Positions 14,240 to 52,486 of a stretch of 64,000 nucleotides of DNA are shown here, in pieces. The DNA lies in the NCBI GenBank assembly GCA_964458615.1, contig CAYWJR010000003.1, forward strand, positions 2,262-66,261. The letters run 5' to 3'. A model generated the notes under the pieces. The model saw only the letters and a program-made list of their open reading frames with translations. It made no database searches and had not been told where the DNA came from. The stretch's first letter is position 1. Every line of letters begins with the position of its first letter. This DNA comes from an uncultured Alphaproteobacteria bacterium. GTDB taxonomy: Bacteria; Pseudomonadota; Alphaproteobacteria; SHNJ01. A program made the translations under genes and the position numbers.

Positions 14240-16210
14240 ATGGCCAATAACAATCCCGCCAATTTTAACAATCCGGTTGTCAAATGGATCGACAGCCGGT
14301 TGCCGATTTTCAGCCTGATGAGCAAGGAATACGGCGTTTTCCCAACGCCGCGTAATTTCAATTACTTTTGGAATTTCGGCGCGATCGCCATGTTCATGCT
14401 GGTGACCATGATCGTGACTGGAATTTTCTTGGCGATGAATTATCAGCCGTCGACCATGCACGCATTCGATTCGGTCGAACGGATTATGCGCGATGTAAAT
14501 CACGGCTGGTTGTTGCGGTATGTGCACGCGAACGGCGCATCGTTTTTCTTTATCGCCGTTTATATCCATATTTTCCGTGGCCTGTATTACGGGTCTTATA
14601 AAAATCCGCGTGAATTATTGTGGATTTTAGGCGTCGTCATTTTGTTGTTGATGATGGCGACCGCGTTTATGGGTTACGTATTGCCTTGGGGGCAAATGTC
14701 TTTTTGGGGCGCGACGGTAATTACCAATTTGTTTTCGGCGATACCCGGCATCGGCCATGACATCGTCACATTGTTATGGGGTGGTTTTTCGGTCGATAAC
14801 CCGACATTGAACCGTTTCTTTGCGTTGCATTATTTATTGCCGTTCGTGTTGGTGGCGGTGGTGTTTTTGCATGTTTGGGCGTTGCATGTGACAGGATCGA
14901 ACAATCCTCTCGGTATCGACGTTAAAACGCCGCAAGACACATTGCCGTTTCATCCATATTACACAGTCAAAGACATGTTCGGTCTTTCGGTGTTTTTGAT
15001 CATTTATTTCGGGTTCGTTTTCTTTGCGCCTAATTATTTGGGCCACCCGGACAATTATATCCCGGCCGATCCGATGGTAACGCCGGCGCACATCGTGCCG
15101 GAATGGTATTTCTTGCCGTTTTACGCGATCTTGCGTTCGGTGCCGGATAAATTGATGGGCGTTATCGCCATGTTCGGCGCCATCGCGGTGTTGTTTGTGG
15201 TGCCGTGGTTGGATACATCCAAGGTGCGCAGCGCGCGTTTCCGCCCGATTTACAAATGGTTTTTCTGGATCTTGGCGATCGTTTGCGTTGCCTTGGGATG
15301 GGCCGGGCAAAAACCGCCCGAAGGAATTCCACTCCTGGTCGCACGTTTGGGAACCGTTTATTATTTCGCGCATTTTTTGATCATTCTGCCTTTGCTTGGC
15401 AGAATTGAAAAACCTTTGCCGTTGCCGAAATCGATTGCCGAATCGGTATTGAAAAAAGGCGCGGTTGCGGTAATCGCGGCGATGTTCTTGTTCGCCGCCA
15501 CCCCGTCGCATGCGTCTGAATCCAACATCGTTTTACCGAAAAATAATTGGTCTTTCGATGGCCCGTTCGGCACCTATGACCGCGCCGCCGCGCAACGCGG
15601 ATTCCAAGTATACAAAGAAGTATGCGCCGCATGCCATTCCCTAAGCCTGGTGGCATACCGCAACTTGGCCGATTTGGGTTATAACGAGGCGGAAATAAAG
15701 GCGATTGCCGCGCAAGCAACCGTAAAAGACGGCCCGAACGACGAAGGCGACATGTTCGAACGTCCCGGCCGCCCGTCGGATAAATTTGTATCCCCTTATG
15801 CGAATAAACAATCGGCGCGCGCCGCGAATAATGGCGCCGCACCGCCGGATTTATCCTTGATCACCAAATCGCGCGTTGGCGGCGCCGATTATTTGCATGC
15901 TTTGCTGATCGGATATGAACCTGCTCCGGCGGATTTTAAATTGTCGCCTGGCATGCATTACAATAAATATTTTGCCGGGCATCAAATCGCCATGCCTGCG
16001 CCGCTTAGCGAAGGTCAGGTGACTTATGCCGACGGCACCAAGGCAAGCGTCGATCAAATGTCGCAAGATGTCGCAACATTTTTGACATGGGCGGCGGAAC
16101 CGGAAATGGAACATCGCAAACGCACCGGCGTGCGGGTATTGGCGTTTCTTGCGGTGTTGGCCGGATTGTTTTACATGAGCAAACGCAAATTATGGAGCGC
16201 GGTGAAGTAG
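14240..16210 (+). CDS. fbcH: fused cytochrome b / cytochrome c1 polyprotein (fbcH-type)
   Basis: A single uninterrupted 656-aa ORF. Residues 1 to about 400 are cytochrome b ([13 protein letters not shown]). An internal signal-peptide-like segment follows ([23 protein letters not shown]), then cytochrome c1 (CAACHSL heme site, C-terminal TM). AGGAG Shine-Dalgarno. Confidence 0.9.
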
Positions 16211-16237
16211 TCTTTCCTGCGCTATCTTCTATTTAAA

Positions 16238-16272
16238 CGCCCGCAATCTATTGATATTGCGGGCGTTTTTAT
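16238..16272 (+). terminator. rho-independent terminator of the petA-fbcH operon
   Basis: CGCCCGCAAT ctattgat ATTGCGGGCG, a perfect 10-bp stem, followed by tttttatttttt. Confidence 0.65.
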
Positions 16273-16347
16273 TTTTTAAAAATTTAAACAAATATTGTCG
16301 GTTTTATAGCAAAATATGCGTTCGAGCGTTTTTTATAAGCCGGTTCA

Positions 16348-16833
16348 GTGCTTAAATTATATTTCGATTGCTGTGTCCCAATTCAGTATGCGCGGTCATT
16401 TACAGGCCGCGGATTCGATGTTGCATTCGCAAAAGAAAAAATTCCCGATCCGCAGGTTGCGATAGATTGTGTTGAAGGAAATGGGGTTCTGGTTACCGCG
16501 AATGCAAAAGATTTTTTGAATATTTATTCGCAATTTCCACAAAATCCAGGTCTTGCAATCACCCCAAATCTTGGTCGTGGTTACCGGATGAATCATGCTG
16601 TAGACACGATGGACAGGTTTGCCGAATTTTTATCAATCAGGAAACCGGATTTGCAAAATAAATTGATCGTTGTCGGGCGTCACAAAGACCCAGATATATT
16701 TCAGTACACAGCACGCGGAGTTCAGGGGCCGGATATAAAAGATCTTTGTGACCCCGGTCTTATCAGGCGCAATAGCCAACAGGGCGCCTATTTAACCGCG
16801 CTGCGTAGCTTGCAGGCGGAAAAATCAAAATAG
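16348..16833 (+). CDS. hypothetical protein, possibly a PIN-like (DUF5615-like) fold; GTG start uncertain
   Basis: ORF with no Shine-Dalgarno. There is weak resemblance to DUF5615 PIN-like proteins (..VLVTANAKDF..). No partner gene is present. Confidence 0.35.
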   Translation: MLKLYFDCCVPIQYARSFTGRGFDVAFAKEKIPDPQVAIDCVEGNGVLVTANAKDFLNIYSQFPQNPGLAITPNLGRGYRMNHAVDTMDRFAEFLSIRKPDLQNKLIVVGRHKDPDIFQYTARGVQGPDIKDLCDPGLIRRNSQQGAYLTALRSLQAEKSK

Positions 16834-16837
16834 ATTT

Positions 16838-17938
16838 TTAGACATTAAACCGGAAATGCATCACATCGCCGTCGGCGACGATGTATTCCTTGCCTTCCAG
16901 GCGCATTTTTCCGGTTTCTTTCGCGCCGGCCTCGCCATTCCCGCTAATATAATCAGGGTATGCGATGGTTTCCGCGCAAATAAAACCTTTTTCAAAATCG
17001 GTATGAATCACGCCCGCCGCGCCAGGCGCCTTGGTGTTTTTGATGATGGTCCAGGCGCGCGCTTCTTTCGGGCCGATGGTGAAATAAGTAATCAGATCCA
17101 GCAATGCGTATCCCGCGCGAATGACGCGGTTTAAACCGGGTTCCGATAAATTCATGGTTCGCAGAAATTCCAATTTATCGGCTTCGTTATCCATCACCGA
17201 AATTTCCGATTCGATTTTCGCGGAAATCACCACGCTTTGCGAATTTTCCGCTTTGGCGTGCGCGGCGACTTTGGCGGACAGGGCATTGCCTTTGTCGGCT
17301 TCGTTTTCTTCGACATTGCAAATGTATAAAACAGGTTTGGATGTCATCAATTGCAATAATCGCACCAGTGGTTTTTGTTCTTTGGTGAAATTGACGCTGC
17401 GTGCCGGTTTTCCATCGCGCAAGGCGGCCAGTATCGGGTCGACGATTTCCAATAACTCTTTGGATTCTTTGTCGCCTTGTTTGGCTTTTTTGGCCAGATT
17501 GTCGTACCGTTTTTCCAGCGATTCCATGTCCGCCAGCATCAATTCCGTGTCGATGATTTCAATATCGCGGATGGGATCGACCGATCCTTCGACATGGGTA
17601 ATATCGCCGCCGTCGAAACAACGCACCACATGCAAAATCGCATCGACTTCGCGGATGTTGGCCAGGAACTGGTTGCCCAATCCTTCGCCCTTGCTGGCGC
17701 CTTTGACGATTCCGGCAATGTCGACAAATTCAATAAAAGTCGGGATAATTTTAGCCGAAGATGCGATTTTCGCCAATTTATCCAACCGGTCGTCGGGAAC
17801 CGCGACGCGGCCAACGTTCGGTTCAATGGTGCAAAACGGATAATTGGCCGCCGCGGCAGCAGCCGATGCAGTCAGCGCGTTGAACAAAGTGGATTTGCCG
17901 ACGTTTGGCAAACCGACGATACCGCAATTGAATCCCAT
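16838..17938 (-). CDS. ychF: redox-regulated ATPase YchF (Obg-family GTPase)
   Basis: MGFNCGIVGLPNVGKSTLFNALT P-loop and a TGS domain at the C-terminus. Confidence 0.9.
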   Translation of the reverse strand: MGFNCGIVGLPNVGKSTLFNALTASAAAAAANYPFCTIEPNVGRVAVPDDRLDKLAKIASSAKIIPTFIEFVDIAGIVKGASKGEGLGNQFLANIREVDAILHVVRCFDGGDITHVEGSVDPIRDIEIIDTELMLADMESLEKRYDNLAKKAKQGDKESKELLEIVDPILAALRDGKPARSVNFTKEQKPLVRLLQLMTSKPVLYICNVEENEADKGNALSAKVAAHAKAENSQSVVISAKIESEISVMDNEADKLEFLRTMNLSEPGLNRVIRAGYALLDLITYFTIGPKEARAWTIIKNTKAPGAAGVIHTDFEKGFICAETIAYPDYISGNGEAGAKETGKMRLEGKEYIVADGDVMHFRFNV

Positions 17939-17974: not shown

Positions 17975-18532
17975 TTATTTTGAAATGGAATTTAAAAATT
18001 CGCTGTCTTTGCCGTCCAAAATCAGGGCAAAGTTTTTTGCAATCGACCATATCGCCGGATCGACCAGTTCTTTTTCTTCTTTTGCGAAATCGTGCAAAAC
18101 AAAAGAAGAAACCAAATCCTTGCGCCCCGGATGGCCGATTCCAAACCGCAGGCGTTTATATTCCACGCCGGCATTGGCGTCAATCGACCGCAGGCCGTTA
18201 TGCCCCGCGTTGCCGCCGCCGGTTTTTATTTTCAATTGCGCGGGATCCAAATCCAGTTCGTCGTGTATGACGACGACGTTTCCGATCGGGATTTTATAAA
18301 ACGCAATCGCTTGTTGCACGGCAACGCCGGATACGTTCATGTATGTTTGCGGTTTCAAAACCAGCACTTTGTGGTCGCCGATCGTTCCATCGAACGCTTC
18401 GGATTCGAATTTTTTCTTAGGCCCCGACAAACCAAACCGCGAAATCAGTTCATCGGCAACCATGAATCCCACATTGTGGCGGTTGTTCCGGTATTCCGAT
18501 CCGGGATTGCCAAGTCCGACGATTAAAAACAT
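17975..18532 (-). CDS. pth: peptidyl-tRNA hydrolase
   Basis: MFLIVGLGNPGSEYRNNRHNVGF signature. Confidence 0.9.
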   Translation of the reverse strand: MFLIVGLGNPGSEYRNNRHNVGFMVADELISRFGLSGPKKKFESEAFDGTIGDHKVLVLKPQTYMNVSGVAVQQAIAFYKIPIGNVVVIHDELDLDPAQLKIKTGGGNAGHNGLRSIDANAGVEYKRLRFGIGHPGRKDLVSSFVLHDFAKEEKELVDPAIWSIAKNFALILDGKDSEFLNSISK

Positions 18533-18560
18533 GGGAATCGGGAATTGGGAATTGGGAATA
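18533..18560 (+). repeat. left terminal repeat: (GGGAATN)x4
   Basis: GGGAATC GGGAATT GGGAATT GGGAATA read directly. Confidence 0.9.
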
Positions 18561-18571
18561 AGATGAACATA

Positions 18572-18955
18572 TTATGCGGCCAAATTTTTACGCAGGCGGT
18601 TTAACATTTGCCGAATAGACATAATTTCCGCCAGCAATTGATCTAATTCAGCGGCAGGGACATAGTTTAAATCGCCAGCCAAGATCAATAATGTTTCCAG
18701 TTCGGCGGACGATCCGGCAGATATTGAAATAAAATGGGCATATTCTTTGCGAGAAGACCGCGCATTGCCTTCGGCAATATTGGAGGGAATGGAAACAACG
18801 GCGCGTTGCAGTTGAGAAGATAAGCCGAATTTCTCGGTGGGCGGGAAATGGGAGGTCAATTCATAAACCGATTTTACCAATGCTCTGGATTTCTTGAAAA
18901 CATCCAGATCTCGATAATCTCGGATTAATGGAACGACCGATTCCCCATTCCCCAT
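18572..18955 (-). CDS. four-helix-bundle protein (TIGR02436-like, formerly called 23S rRNA intervening-sequence protein)
   Basis: Hallmark motifs SIPSNIAEGNAR and SAELETLLILA. 127 aa. Confidence 0.85.
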   Translation of the reverse strand: MGNGESVVPLIRDYRDLDVFKKSRALVKSVYELTSHFPPTEKFGLSSQLQRAVVSIPSNIAEGNARSSRKEYAHFISISAGSSAELETLLILAGDLNYVPAAELDQLLAEIMSIRQMLNRLRKNLAA

Positions 18956-18966
18956 TCCCGATTCCC
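18939..18966 (-). repeat. right terminal repeat: (GGGAATN)x4 on the minus strand, i.e. inverted relative to the left one
   Basis: Plus strand reads GATTCCC CATTCCC CATTCCC GATTCCC, whose reverse complement is GGGAATC GGGAATG GGGAATG GGGAATC. The cargo gene's ATG lies inside this repeat. Confidence 0.9.
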
Positions 18967-18968
18967 TT

Positions 18969-19673
18969 CTACTTCTTCGCCGGAGCCGCAGGTTTCGCAG
19001 CGTCTTTGCCAGCAGCAGCCGCAGGAGCGGCAGCAGCAGCGCCTTCGGCCGGAGCAGCGGCAGCGTCTGTCGCAGCGGCGGCAGTCGCCGGTGCGTCGTC
19101 TTTAACGACTGTCGGCGGATTGATCGCCAATACGGTAAAGTCGCGGTCGCGTTGTACCGGTTGCACGGTCGACGGCAATTTCATTTGGCTGATATGGACG
19201 GATGTATTGATTTCCAAACCTTCTAGGTCGATTTCAAAATATTCCGGAATATCGGCGGCCAAACATGTTACTTCGATTTCATGTTGTACCAAGTTCAATA
19301 CGCCGCCTTGTTTCAAGCCAGGGCATTTCGCTTCGTTTTTCACATGGATCGGCACGTTGACGCGGATGCGGGTTTTATCCGACACGCGCAAGAAATCGAC
19401 GTGAATAACATGATCCGTTACCGGATGGGTTTGCACATCGCGGGGCAGGGTGCGGATTTTCGCGCCGCCCATTTCAATGTCCACCAATTTGGTGAAAAAG
19501 TTTCCGGCCATGTATAATTTGCCCAGTTCCAATGGGTTGAGCATGATGATCTGCGGATCTTTTTTGTCGCCGTAAATTACGGCAGGAATTTTATTGTCGC
19601 GGCGTGTCGCGCGGGCGGCCCCTTTACCAGCTCCCGGGCGAGATTCGGCAGACAATTTCAGTACTTGTGTCAT
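18969..19673 (-). CDS. rplY: 50S ribosomal protein L25 / general stress protein Ctc, with an Ala/Pro/Lys-rich C-terminal tail
   Basis: RRDNKIPAVIYG N-terminus and an L25 beta-barrel, followed by a low-complexity tail of about 45 aa typical of alphaproteobacterial L25. Confidence 0.9.
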   Translation of the reverse strand: MTQVLKLSAESRPGAGKGAARATRRDNKIPAVIYGDKKDPQIIMLNPLELGKLYMAGNFFTKLVDIEMGGAKIRTLPRDVQTHPVTDHVIHVDFLRVSDKTRIRVNVPIHVKNEAKCPGLKQGGVLNLVQHEIEVTCLAADIPEYFEIDLEGLEINTSVHISQMKLPSTVQPVQRDRDFTVLAINPPTVVKDDAPATAAAATDAAAAPAEGAAAAAPAAAAGKDAAKPAAPAKK

Positions 19674-49743: not shown

Positions 49744-51036
49744 TTATTTGGGCTGAAATCCGTCTGGAAACTTGGTTCCATCGGTTTTTGCGCCTTCAAA
49801 CCGGGCGTTGTGCAAATTGCTGCCGCGCAAATCCGCGCCGCTAAGATCCGATTGCGACAAATTGGCGTCCGCCAGATTCGCGCCGGACAAATTCGCGCCC
49901 ACCATGCTGACTTTGAATAAATTCGCGCCGACCATATTGGTCGGCCAGGTGCGCCCGGTATGAATTCCATCGGGGCCTTTCAAATCGACCGGGCCCAATT
50001 GCGCGCCGTCCAAATTTGCCTGTTGTAAATCGGCGTTGGCCAGATTCACGCCTTCCATCACGGCTTTTTGCATGTTGGCTTGGCGCAAAAAGCTGTTGGA
50101 AAAATTGGTCATTACTAGGATCGAATTTTCCATATTTACATTTTGCATCACGCATTTGTCCAAATCCGCGCCGGATAAATTGGTGCCGGACAAATCCAGG
50201 CTGCTTAAATCCTCGCCGGTCAAGTTGGCGCGCGATCCTTTGGCTCCGGATTCCTTGATCCATAAAAAATGATCGTTCAATATTTGCTGGATCGACGGTT
50301 TGGCTTGTAAATTCGGGCGGGGCAGGTTGGCGCCGGTAATGTCGGCTTGCAATAAATCCAGGCCGGTCAAATTCGCTTCGTTTAAATCGGCGTGTTTAAA
50401 ACATGTGTCTTTGATTTGCGCGCCTTGCAAGTTGACTTTTATCAGCGATGCGCGGGTCAAATTCGCGCCGGATAAATTCGATCCCGATAAATTCGCGTTT
50501 TCCAAATCCGCTTCGGACAAATCGGCTTCGGACAAATTGGTTCCCGCCAATTGCGCGCCAATCAAAATAGTTTTCAGGAATTTGGCGTTTTTCAAATTGA
50601 CTTCGGCGTTCGCGCCCTTGCCGCCTTTTTTTTCATTGTCCGCCTGATACAAATCGGCGGTGGAAACATCTTCGTCCGATTTCGCCTTGCCGCTGATCAG
50701 CCGGCCGCTGCGCATATCGGCTTCGGTCATGTTGGCTTTGGTGAAATCGGCGTCCTGCAACGATGCGCCGCGCATATCGGTGCGGCATAAAATCGCCTTG
50801 GTTAAATTCGCGCCGGTCATGTTCGCGCCGTAAAAATCCGCCTCGCTTAGGTCGGATCCGGTGAAATTGCAATACCGCAAATCCGCGCCGGTGAATTGCG
50901 CCAATTTTAAATTCAAATCGACGAACGAAACACCCGACAAATTTTGGTGCGAAAAATTCGCGCGCTTGCCGCCCACCGCACCTTTTAACCAGGTTTCGTG
51001 CAAATTCAGAATTTTCATCAATTTGTCTGGGGTCAT
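49744..51036 (-). CDS. pentapeptide-repeat protein B (about 430 aa), internally duplicated
   Basis: Two blocks of A(D/N)LxX pentapeptides (GANLSGANLTRASL...), each preceded by an HxxWLxxxG helix. Start set at ATG 51036, 4 nt after the upstream stop. Confidence 0.8.
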   Translation of the reverse strand: MTPDKLMKILNLHETWLKGAVGGKRANFSHQNLSGVSFVDLNLKLAQFTGADLRYCNFTGSDLSEADFYGANMTGANLTKAILCRTDMRGASLQDADFTKANMTEADMRSGRLISGKAKSDEDVSTADLYQADNEKKGGKGANAEVNLKNAKFLKTILIGAQLAGTNLSEADLSEADLENANLSGSNLSGANLTRASLIKVNLQGAQIKDTCFKHADLNEANLTGLDLLQADITGANLPRPNLQAKPSIQQILNDHFLWIKESGAKGSRANLTGEDLSSLDLSGTNLSGADLDKCVMQNVNMENSILVMTNFSNSFLRQANMQKAVMEGVNLANADLQQANLDGAQLGPVDLKGPDGIHTGRTWPTNMVGANLFKVSMVGANLSGANLADANLSQSDLSGADLRGSNLHNARFEGAKTDGTKFPDGFQPK

Positions 51037-51040
51037 GAAA

Positions 51041-52312
51041 TCAGGCGTCCGAAAAAATGGCTTCGTTCTGGTTGGTGTTGGCGAAAACCGCCGTCGACAC
51101 GTCGCTGCCGATAAAATTGGTGTGGCGCAGATTCGATCCGGTAAAATCGGTTCCATTCAACAATGTGTTGCGGAAATTAGCGCCTTCTAAATTCGCTTCG
51201 ATCAATTGCGCGGCTTCGAGATTGGAATAGTGATTGGTGATTTTTTCGTTTCTTGATTCTTCGATCCAATCCAGATCCGCGCCGTATAAATTGGCTTTTT
51301 GCAAATTCGCTTTTTGCAAATCGACGCCGTTTAAAATCGCGCCGGTCAGATCCGCATTTTTTAAATTCGCCCAACTGAGATCCGCGAACGATAAAACGGC
51401 ATACGACAAATTCGCGGCTTCGAAATTCACGCCGGACAAATTCGCCCACATCAAATTGAAACCCGTCAAATTCGCGGATTTCAGTTCCGCGCGGCTTAGA
51501 TCGGCGCGTTGACCCAATGTTCCGCCGCTGCGGATCCATTGCAAATGCTCGCTTAACGCTTGGCGGACTTTGGACGGCAAATGCGATGTGATGGAATCGT
51601 GCATGGCGCCCATGATCGCGGCTTTGGTAAAATCGACGCCGTCGATGGTGGCGCCTTCGAAATCGGCGTAACGGAAATTGGCGCGTTCGATCGACGGGCT
51701 GGATAAATTCGCGCCTTTCAAAGACGCCAGCGATAAATTCGCATCGGTTAAAATGGTGCGGGTCAAATTCGCGCCATCCAAATTGGCGCGCGACAAATTG
51801 ACGGACGTTAAATTCGCATCGGCCAATTGCGTGCCGATCAAGGTTGCGCCCAACATCGACGATCCGGTCAAATTGGCTCCGCCGCTGTTGGGCGGATTTT
51901 TGGCCGACGATTCGATGAAATCTGCGACGGTGGCGCGGCGTTTGCCTTCGGGCGCTTCGCTTTCGGCGTCGAAAAACGATCCGCCGCGCAAATCGGCCTG
52001 TTTTAAATCCGCAAAATCCAAATTGACGCGCAACATCGATGCGCCGCGCAAATCGGCGCGGTTCATGTTGCAGTTGGATAAATCCGCGCCATCCAGTTTG
52101 GCGACGAATAAATCGGTGTAACTGAGGTTGGCGCCCGATAAATCCGCGCCGGACAAATCCGCACCGGTCAAACGCACCGATTGCAGCAAGGCGCCTTTTA
52201 GATTCATTCCGGTCAGTTTTTGTTTGGATAAATCGGCGCGTTGACCGCCAGGCAGCTTTTGCAGCCACTTGGCGTGTTTGTCTAAAATATCCTGTAATTC
52301 GGCGGTTTCCAT
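51041..52312 (-). CDS. pentapeptide-repeat protein A (about 423 aa), a paralog of B
   Basis: Same architecture (HAKWLQK... and EHLQWIRSGGTLG linkers). Start set at ATG 52312 (METAELQDILDKHAKWL). Confidence 0.8.
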   Translation of the reverse strand: METAELQDILDKHAKWLQKLPGGQRADLSKQKLTGMNLKGALLQSVRLTGADLSGADLSGANLSYTDLFVAKLDGADLSNCNMNRADLRGASMLRVNLDFADLKQADLRGGSFFDAESEAPEGKRRATVADFIESSAKNPPNSGGANLTGSSMLGATLIGTQLADANLTSVNLSRANLDGANLTRTILTDANLSLASLKGANLSSPSIERANFRYADFEGATIDGVDFTKAAIMGAMHDSITSHLPSKVRQALSEHLQWIRSGGTLGQRADLSRAELKSANLTGFNLMWANLSGVNFEAANLSYAVLSFADLSWANLKNADLTGAILNGVDLQKANLQKANLYGADLDWIEESRNEKITNHYSNLEAAQLIEANLEGANFRNTLLNGTDFTGSNLRHTNFIGSDVSTAVFANTNQNEAIFSDA

Positions 52313-52486
52313 GCGGATGAACCAGATGTTGTATCCAAACAAACTATACCACTTAAGCCGCAAAGTATATCCACATACCGGTTTGCGCGCCGGTGTTTTT
52401 GCCGCGCATGTATGATTTTATGTCGTAAAAACAACACTTTCCAATTTCGAATCCGGCGCTATATTGATTCGACATCGGAGAAATTT

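Follow-up and report, generated by a model that had tools for sequence, protein, structure and literature searches.

The closest described counterparts of the element analysed here are the intervening sequences (IVSs) of 23S rRNA that carry an open reading frame (ORF), above all that of Coxiella, which is 428 nt long and closed by a 28-bp terminal stem, has three GACAGAT units and one GACAGAA beside the start codon of its S23p gene, with a number of units that varies between strains, and is cleaved within the stem by RNase III, at the first repeat (PMC4990558). We analysed a 64,000-nt stretch of DNA from an uncultured alphaproteobacterium (contig CAYWJR010000003.1, positions 2,262 to 66,261 of the forward strand; hereafter "the window"), in which the spacer between the genes rplY and pth is occupied by a 434-nt element made of two four-unit GGGAATN arrays around an ORF of 127 amino acids (aa). 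With a probability that we put at roughly 0.6 for the statement as a whole, this element is an IVS-type ORF cassette residing in a messenger RNA (mRNA) operon, whose RNA stem would be processed or would insulate the operon.

Heptamer arrays of the same type are known from Xanthomonas. According to the part of the article by Rehm et al. (2015) on which we draw (PMC4692102), X. campestris has 186 GGGAATC-type arrays with a preference for four units; those on the coding strand sit just past stop codons and those on the non-coding strand just ahead of ORFs, and the arrays form 70-75 convergent inverted pairs per genome between co-directional genes. The same part reports that the arrays are transcribed, differ in length between species and form G-quadruplexes (G4) in vitro, reads them as G4-forming simple sequence repeats (SSRs) of unknown function, and draws no link to four-helix-bundle genes, IVSs or RNase III. 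A preliminary description of the window had taken such a cassette to be undescribed outside rRNA, which goes too far on two counts: Xanthomonas was already on record as having inverted GGGAATC arrays in the spacers of co-directional genes, in the portion of PMC4692102 just summarized, and the gene family is commonplace, with 44,002 clusters at 50% identity (E<=1e-3; 23,248 at E<=1e-10) and with 23S_rRNA_IVP genes noted between cas genes (PMC3936711). As to the combination of the two, a literature search that left subscription journals mostly outside its reach returned nothing that, the Coxiella IVS apart, links the TIGR02436 family, to which the ORF belongs, to heptamer arrays at its flanks, and a prior description is possible; the bracket as a general feature of the family is apparently unreported.

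The cassette between rplY and pth

All features of the locus lie on the minus strand; those of the cassette are given in transcript order, followed by the genes of the host operon.

18939..18966, minus: 5' arm on the transcript, GGGAATC GGGAATG GGGAATG GGGAATC (the reverse complement of the plus strand)
18572..18955, minus: four-helix-bundle ORF, 127 aa (TIGR02436 / PF05635, XCC0516-like)
18561..18571, minus: spacer from the ORF stop codon to the 3' arm, 11 nt
18533..18560, minus: 3' arm on the transcript, TATTCCC AATTCCC AATTCCC GATTCCC
18969..19673, minus: rplY (bL25/Ctc), upstream gene of the host operon, context and not part of the cassette
17975..18532, minus: pth (peptidyl-tRNA hydrolase), downstream host gene
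16838..17938, minus: ychF, which comes third in the co-directional rplY-pth-ychF block and served in the search for relatives

Along the transcript, the rplY stop codon is followed after 2 nt by the G-rich arm, then by the ORF, the 11-nt spacer and the C-rich arm, and the pth ATG starts right after the last base of the latter (0 nt gap). The element thus fills the rplY-pth gap, as the preliminary description had stated, and its account of the two heptamer arrays at 18533-18560 (on the plus strand, GGGAATC GGGAATT GGGAATT GGGAATA) and 18939-18966 is likewise correct. The inverted repeat, which it called perfect over 28 bp, pairs at 25/28 positions, the GGGAAT cores being complementary and three of the four N positions mismatched. 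The ATG of the ORF (18953-18955) does lie inside the right repeat, where it forms nt 12-14 of the 5' arm.

The sequence GGGAATNGGGAAT occurs 6 times in the window, always within the two arms (the mean in shuffled windows is 0.67, and 0/100 shuffles reach 6); the arms are also the only period-7 arrays of the window, and the cassette is present there in a single copy. Both arms have the defining features of a GGGNATC-type SSR (at least 2 tandem GGGANTN units including GGGAATC, in a non-coding region), and each, as G3N4 x4, is a canonical G4 sequence motif. An Rfam scan of the window returned one tRNA only, with no rRNA and no known RNA family at the cassette locus. No intrinsic terminator was called at the arms, and no target-site duplication is visible at the ends of the element (AA on the one side, ATG on the other). 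By visual inspection, a purine-rich Shine-Dalgarno-like site precedes each of rplY, ychF and the cassette ORF; none can be made out ahead of the pth ATG, which adjoins the G-poor arm, and the same holds for pth in all relatives examined. This start without a Shine-Dalgarno sequence beside the arm suggests either hairpin-mediated coupling or Shine-Dalgarno-independent initiation.

The assignment of the ORF to TIGR02436, proposed earlier from motifs, is borne out by a hidden Markov model (HMM) search, in which its score is 118.5 bits for TIGR02436 and 126.7 bits for PF05635, well above the respective cut-offs of 24 and 33.8. Residues R51-S55-N59-E62 in RAVVSIPSNIAEG correspond to the conserved RxxxSxxxNxxE motif of the family (cited in PMC3936711), and 13/13 invariant columns of a 60-sequence family alignment are kept. 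A phmmer comparison with the Protein Data Bank entry 2GSC (XCC0516 family) gives E=5e-22, and the predicted monomer is a four-helix up-down bundle (predicted local distance difference test score, pLDDT, 93.4) that matches the solved structures of the family. The ratio of nonsynonymous to synonymous substitution rates (dN/dS) of 0.12-0.16 against its two orthologues argues that the protein is maintained under purifying selection. The GC content of the ORF is somewhat below that of its neighbours, and at third codon positions (GC3) it is 0.45 vs 0.56-0.59 in the neighbouring genes. By homology with the accessory protein Avd, the product is probably a nucleic-acid-binding pentamer.

An orthologous cassette with GGGAATN-type arrays on both sides is found at rplY-pth in three metagenomic contigs (L002, L003 and L004), whose cassette proteins are 71% and 76% identical to that of the window and share the array-encoded N-terminus MGNGES. 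The divergence of the four-helix-bundle protein is about that of RplY (71% vs 72%). Copies only 71-76% identical at one and the same site argue for old, vertical inheritance; by this measure the window cassette is old, orthologous in its relatives and not recently mobile. Four other contigs (L125, L126, L127 and L129, one of them labelled as the metagenome-assembled genome of an Alphaproteobacteria bacterium), with a YchF 91-94% identical to that of the window, have no ORF at rplY-pth. Their spacers of 52-83 nt contain G-rich heptamers and the complement of these, i.e. a hairpin that reaches from the rplY stop to the pth start (L125:2843-2925, L126:2803-2871, L129:2858-2909), with predicted folds of -32 to -42 kcal/mol (z -4.8 to -5.8). 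The unit is GGGTTTN in L125, L126 and L127 and GGGCATN in L129; thus in the rplY-pth spacers of the relatives the unit changes (GGGAATN, GGGTTTA, GGGCATA), while the G3N4 pattern and the hairpin stay. The unit GGGTTTA is also that of plant telomeres.

The local phylogeny, taken from the identities of three proteins (RplY, Pth and YchF), places L002, which has the ORF and a YchF 85% identical to that of the window, as the outgroup. The simplest history would therefore comprise an ancestral cassette, vertical descent, and loss of the ORF in the nearer lineages with the hairpin kept. Since the hairpin outlasts the ORF, the stem appears as the constant feature of the rplY-pth spacer and the ORF as dispensable, which is the conclusion that the authors of the Coxiella IVS study reached for their element. 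The empty rplY-pth junctions that had been suggested as a check do exist in so far as the ORF is absent, but they are not naive sites, as they hold heptamer hairpins of other units.

Arrays around the four-helix-bundle genes

Relatives were collected by a profile-guided scan of metagenome contigs, which gave 80 loci with proteins 41-55% identical to the query. These loci are the best tblastn matches of a scan that started from a single peptide pattern; their neighbouring genes were called by a simple ORF rule, and the contigs carry no taxonomy. Measured against 135 control ORFs of these contigs, the complementarity between the flanks of the gene lies above the 99th percentile in 46/66 metagenome loci, in 56/74 if 200-nt flanks are used, and in 34/41 loci on viral contigs; by eye, nearly all of the 80 loci have tandem units of about 7 nt upstream of the gene and, downstream of it, an array of the reverse complement of these. 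Each locus has a unit of its own (GTCAGTA, GGCAAGT, GGTTGAT, CGGATAC, GTGACGA, AAGACAA and others), the period is 7 in 36/45 clear arrays and mostly 8 in the remainder, and arms of four units are the commonest, the median arm length being 27-31 nt. As a pattern of genomic DNA, the complementary-array bracket is shown by these counts, from about 120 relatives in all, to be the rule for the TIGR02436 gene family. An Rfam scan of 20 related loci placed none of them in rRNA. Bracketed cassettes were found in Chitinophagaceae, a cyanobacterium and Saprospiraceae; in Pseudoxanthomonas (L081:5027-5460) a cassette of exactly 434 bp, like the element of the window, splits accB from accC, and in Xanthomonas campestris (L210:1440-1905) one whose GGGGACC units overlap the end of carA splits carA from carB. 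The preliminary description had named beforehand two findings that would speak against it, arrays absent from all other copies of the gene together with a similar rplY-pth spacer in relatives, and failure of the HMM search; both were looked for, and its idea survived.

It is the pairing of the arrays, and not the GGGAATN unit, that is diagnostic of the family, since an exact genome scan for (GGGAATN)3 gave 120 hits, mostly cyanobacterial arrays without a nearby four-helix-bundle gene, and such a gene stands next to the array in 4 of them. Only 3/58 of the 5' arms across the family are G4-capable. Arrays of (GGGAATN)3 are common in cyanobacteria (scan L005-L124), where they are mostly single and gene-less; short GGGAATN hairpins with arms 50-110 nt apart occur in Xanthomonadales, Gemmatimonadota and Bacteroidota, and arrays also in Thermoplasmata archaea.

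The cassettes occupy their spacers in a regular manner. The upstream neighbour is co-directional in 46/53 loci (p=4e-8) and the downstream one in 35/46; the median distance from the stop codon of the upstream neighbour to the 5' arm is 1.5 nt, and that from the 3' arm to the first downstream start codon is 8 nt, so that the exact gap filling seen in the window is the norm for the family. The bracket is also chiral: the 5' arm is G-rich and C-poor in 56/56 metagenome arm pairs (A 0.29, C 0.08, G 0.33, T 0.31) and G-rich in 28 loci vs 3 opposite in the viral-contig set, and genomic GGGAAT arrays paired within 900 nt have the order GGGAAT...ATTCCC in 15 loci, the opposite order having been seen in none. 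Because the two strands of an inverted repeat have the same sequence, this chirality belongs to the bracket and not to the orientation of the ORF.

The arms are inherited together with the gene. Protein pairs at least 60% identical share the arm unit in 33-67% of cases, and pairs below 60% in 1-2%. In two groups of related cassettes (L146/L171/L176/L185, 67-79% identical, and L150/L159/L161, 69-71% identical) the flanking genes are unrelated on both sides, and in the alignments of these groups similarity ends at the outer ends of the arms. Shared units, unrelated flanks and homology ending at the arms together argue that ORF and arms relocate as one. Target-site duplications are absent family-wide (the longest direct match is 3.44, vs 3.32 in shuffled pairs), and no recombinase or transposase was seen in or beside the cassettes. 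The mobile cassette of the preliminary description is thus supported by the absence of the ORF in close relatives and by related units in unrelated contexts, but not by the copy in the window, which is old and vertical, nor by any target-site duplication or recombinase.

Several smaller observations concern the borders and loops of the brackets. Array-encoded N-terminal peptides were found in the three orthologues only, and no 7-aa periodicity was detected in 147 representatives; such peptides are uninformative because gene callers start downstream of the arrays, and DNA contexts are needed. In L146, L171, L176 and L185 the 3' array starts inside the ORF and so encodes its final codons and its stop; the MGNGES start of the window, likewise encoded by an array, is the counterpart at the other end, and arrays thus overlap both ends of the coding sequence in these very compact elements. 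Stop codons in all three frames are found in 40% of the 5' arms vs 17% in shuffles, which is explained by periodicity and composition. ORF-less hairpins near ORF-bearing cassettes were seen in L015 (6517-6600, where both have the unit GGGAATA) and downstream of the cassette in L176 (with the cassette's own unit, GGATTCAAGG); these hint at within-genome families of autonomous and ORF-less forms. No ORF remnants were found in hairpin loops of intermediate size.

Two other regions of the window were recorded in passing. The segment between ychF and a fused cytochrome b/c1 gene (16050-16833) differs among the relatives: in the window it holds a low-GC (0.40-0.44) ORF of 161 aa that matches DUF5615 weakly; its place is taken by a luxI/luxR-like pair in L125, L126 and L127, and by a metallo-beta-lactamase/RNase J-like gene in L129. 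The minus strand at 49744-52363 holds two neighbouring ORFs that overlap and code for long pentapeptide-repeat proteins (470 and 440 aa); the 15-nt tandem periodicity that Tandem Repeats Finder detects comes from them.

A putative RNA stem and the rival readings

In the minus-strand RNA of the whole element, the two arms are predicted to form a stem that closes the whole ORF (minimum free energy -142.5 kcal/mol, z=-3.5), in line with the long stem envisaged in the preliminary description; the arms alone, joined by a short artificial loop, are predicted to pair over 25 bp (-44.6 kcal/mol, z=-5.8). A duplex of about 28 bp has a plausible length for an RNase III substrate. Such a duplex accounts for the common four-unit length better than a G-quadruplex does, and the four-unit preference, read before in terms of G4, can be recast as one of duplex length, four units being the commonest number even where the arms have no G4 capacity.

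According to the reading that we prefer, the promoterless four-helix-bundle gene would be transcribed by read-through from the rplY promoter, and in the transcript the arms would zip into a stem of about 28 bp around the ORF. As in the homologous Coxiella IVS, this stem would serve as a substrate of RNase III, and cutting it would release the ORF segment and separate or re-couple the flanking host messages. The stem would also bring the stop codon of rplY next to the start codon of pth, which has no Shine-Dalgarno sequence; a ribosome that ends its translation of rplY could then open the foot of the stem and free the AUG of pth, and coupling of this kind would explain why the hairpin persists after loss of the ORF. 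The arrays themselves may expand and homogenise by slippage. Read-through, stem, RNase III processing and rplY-pth coupling are deduced from the anatomy of the element and the Coxiella precedent. What the comparisons bear on directly, namely the architecture, the inheritance of the unit, the placement in operons, the age of the copy and the loss of the ORF with the hairpin kept, is very likely correct, whereas to RNase III processing at the rplY-pth locus, argued by analogy, we would give slightly less than an even chance.

Several points weigh against the IVS-type reading. The mismatches between arms show no excess of G.U pairs (86 are sense-compatible vs 91 antisense-compatible), so that selection on the sense RNA is not demonstrated and pairing at the DNA level fits equally well; in the three orthologous stems, inspected manually, the single informative change (GGGAATG to GGAAATG, in L004) is uncompensated. 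Across a loop of about 380 nt, pairing of the arms in vivo would compete with translating ribosomes. The start codon of the ORF lies inside the stem, whose formation or cleavage would oppose translation of the ORF, an argument made also for Coxiella S23p, yet the dN/dS values indicate that the protein is maintained. An RNase III stem as such gives no reason to expect the strict chirality (56/56). Translational coupling cannot be general, since at many loci the arm is separated from the following gene by a Shine-Dalgarno sequence, and transcription and processing in the source organism are themselves predictions from the sequence.

Each of the three rival explanations is, in our estimate, less probable than the IVS-type cassette. 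The bracket may act at the DNA level, as terminal inverted repeats (TIRs), a cruciform or a single-strand hairpin used in insertion, excision or arm-to-arm gene conversion, with the RNA stem as a by-product. The occurrence of related ORF-plus-arm units in unrelated contexts, where homology stops precisely at the arms, arm mismatches without G.U bias, a unit common to both arms and differing between loci, as self-correction of a palindrome would give, and the presence or absence of the ORF among relatives would all follow. We nevertheless consider this account unlikely: the longest direct matches at the ends do not exceed those of controls in any way that suggests target-site duplication (mean 3.44 vs 3.32), neither transposase nor recombinase accompanies the cassette, the unit sequences are unconserved and so provide no common protein-binding site, the local copy has remained in place through about 29% of protein divergence, and the co-orientation with neighbours (46/53) argues for a transcription-linked constraint.

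More improbable still, to our mind, is that the host spacer had a regulatory hairpin (an attenuator, a processing site or a stabiliser of the mRNA) before the ORF arrived, the gene having entered its loop afterwards. Such a hairpin would agree with the array hairpin that spans from the rplY stop to the pth start, with or without the ORF, in 6/6 relatives examined, and with the pth start that lacks a Shine-Dalgarno sequence in all of them; it is at odds with the outgroup L002, which has both the ORF and the GGGAATN unit and makes the ORF-bearing state probably ancestral, with arm units that follow the phylogeny of the ORF into unrelated contexts, and with the lack of any terminator-like site called at the arms. 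Least likely of the three is that the arrays are G4-forming SSRs that regulate rplY and pth, the enclosed ORF being incidental. Each arm is G3N4 x4, all locus variants in the relatives (GGGAATN, GGGTTTA, GGGCATA) keep the G3 tracts, and both G4 formation in vitro and the four-unit preference are reported in the part of the Rehm et al. article used here (PMC4692102). However, the arrays come as complementary pairs around an ORF, control ORFs are without them, the duplex would compete with the G4, and four units remain the commonest length with 3/58 family 5' arms capable of G4. That last count led us to reject G4 as a general explanation for the family; for the clade of the window it is possible.

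We also put forward, tentatively and with more doubt than confidence in the whole, a wider proposal: TIGR02436 genes together with their arrays may constitute an unrecognised, cross-phylum class of hairpin-bracketed guest-gene cassettes of transcribed spacers. Jointly with this, the IVSs of 23S rRNA would be only the rRNA-resident subset of the class; the Xanthomonas GGGAATC inverted repeats and the ORF-less rplY-pth hairpins would be decayed or non-autonomous derivatives; active arm-to-arm copying would keep the two arms identical; and the pentameric Avd-like protein would handle the stem or move the cassette. If this were true, the ORFs of 23S IVSs, unexplained since about 1990, the four-helix-bundle genes and the heptamers of Xanthomonas and cyanobacteria would be one phenomenon, and the IVS question would become testable in culturable bacteria, e.g. 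with the carA-four-helix-bundle-carB arrangement of X. campestris or the accB-four-helix-bundle-accC arrangement of Pseudoxanthomonas. It would also mean that an operon can tolerate a foreign gene in a simple way, the stem suturing the transcript around the insert.

Comparison with described systems

[quoted passage not shown] The Correia elements of Neisseria and the enterobacterial ERIC (enterobacterial repetitive intergenic consensus) and REP (repetitive extragenic palindromic) sequences are imperfect palindromes in operon spacers that are co-transcribed with their neighbours, and the hairpins of Correia elements are cleaved by RNase III and change the expression of the genes beside them. 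The ORF-less rplY-pth hairpins of the relatives look functionally similar to these. All three have a fixed family consensus, Correia elements moreover having TA target duplications and no ORF, whereas the arms of the cassette are tandem heptamers with a locus-specific unit. Membership of the protein in a diversity-generating retroelement (DGR), as its accessory protein Avd, was considered and rejected: it scores 27.9 bits against NF033474, below the Avd family cut-off of 80 bits, and 25.1 bits against PF22296 (cut-off 40), and there is no reverse transcriptase and no template/variable repeat among the identified neighbours (rplY, pth, ychF and DUF2157). To our knowledge, Avd genes are not bracketed by heptamer arrays.

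Intergenic direct repeats of the heptamer TAACTGA occur in Beggiatoaceae, cyanobacteria and Bacteroidetes, with a patchy distribution across phyla; they stop 1 nt short of start codons, and a Shine-Dalgarno sequence is often absent (MacGregor 2015, PMC4679880). Some 3' arms of the family, with CAACTGA or CTAACGA units, are like them, but TAACTGA repeats are described as single sets of direct repeats, with no four-helix-bundle gene reported (PMC4679880). The GGGAATC/GGGNATC repeats of Xanthomonas and Nostoc are closer, as they share with the arms of the window the unit, the four-unit preference and the site between co-directional genes; in the portion of the Rehm et al. article on which this comparison draws (PMC4692102), the described placement is also that of the window arms, which lie 2 nt past the rplY stop and 0 nt before the pth ATG with the G-rich arm 5'. 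The inverted pairs of that account are apparently mostly ORF-less, whereas the pair in the window encloses a gene, and the units of the four-helix-bundle family need not be G4-capable.

The nearest match is with the ORF-bearing IVSs of 23S rRNA, and the preliminary description was right to see the same kind of module here. The window host transcript is the protein-coding rplY-pth-ychF, not helix 45 or 25 of 23S rRNA, and the element does not lie inside any of the 23S rRNA helices (9, 25 or 45) in which IVSs are defined to reside. Two further differences separate it from the Coxiella element, in which RNase III cleavage was demonstrated and the ORF is apparently decaying, whereas the stem in the window is known from its predicted fold and its ORF is under purifying selection. 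The element resembles the ORF-bearing IVSs (Coxiella, Leptospira) in that it encodes a PF05635 protein and has a GC content lower than that of the host; its length is 434 nt vs 428 nt in Coxiella, with 28-nt arms against a 28-bp stem; and as in Coxiella, tandem heptamers stand at the 5' end by the start of the ORF, with the start codon near or inside the stem.

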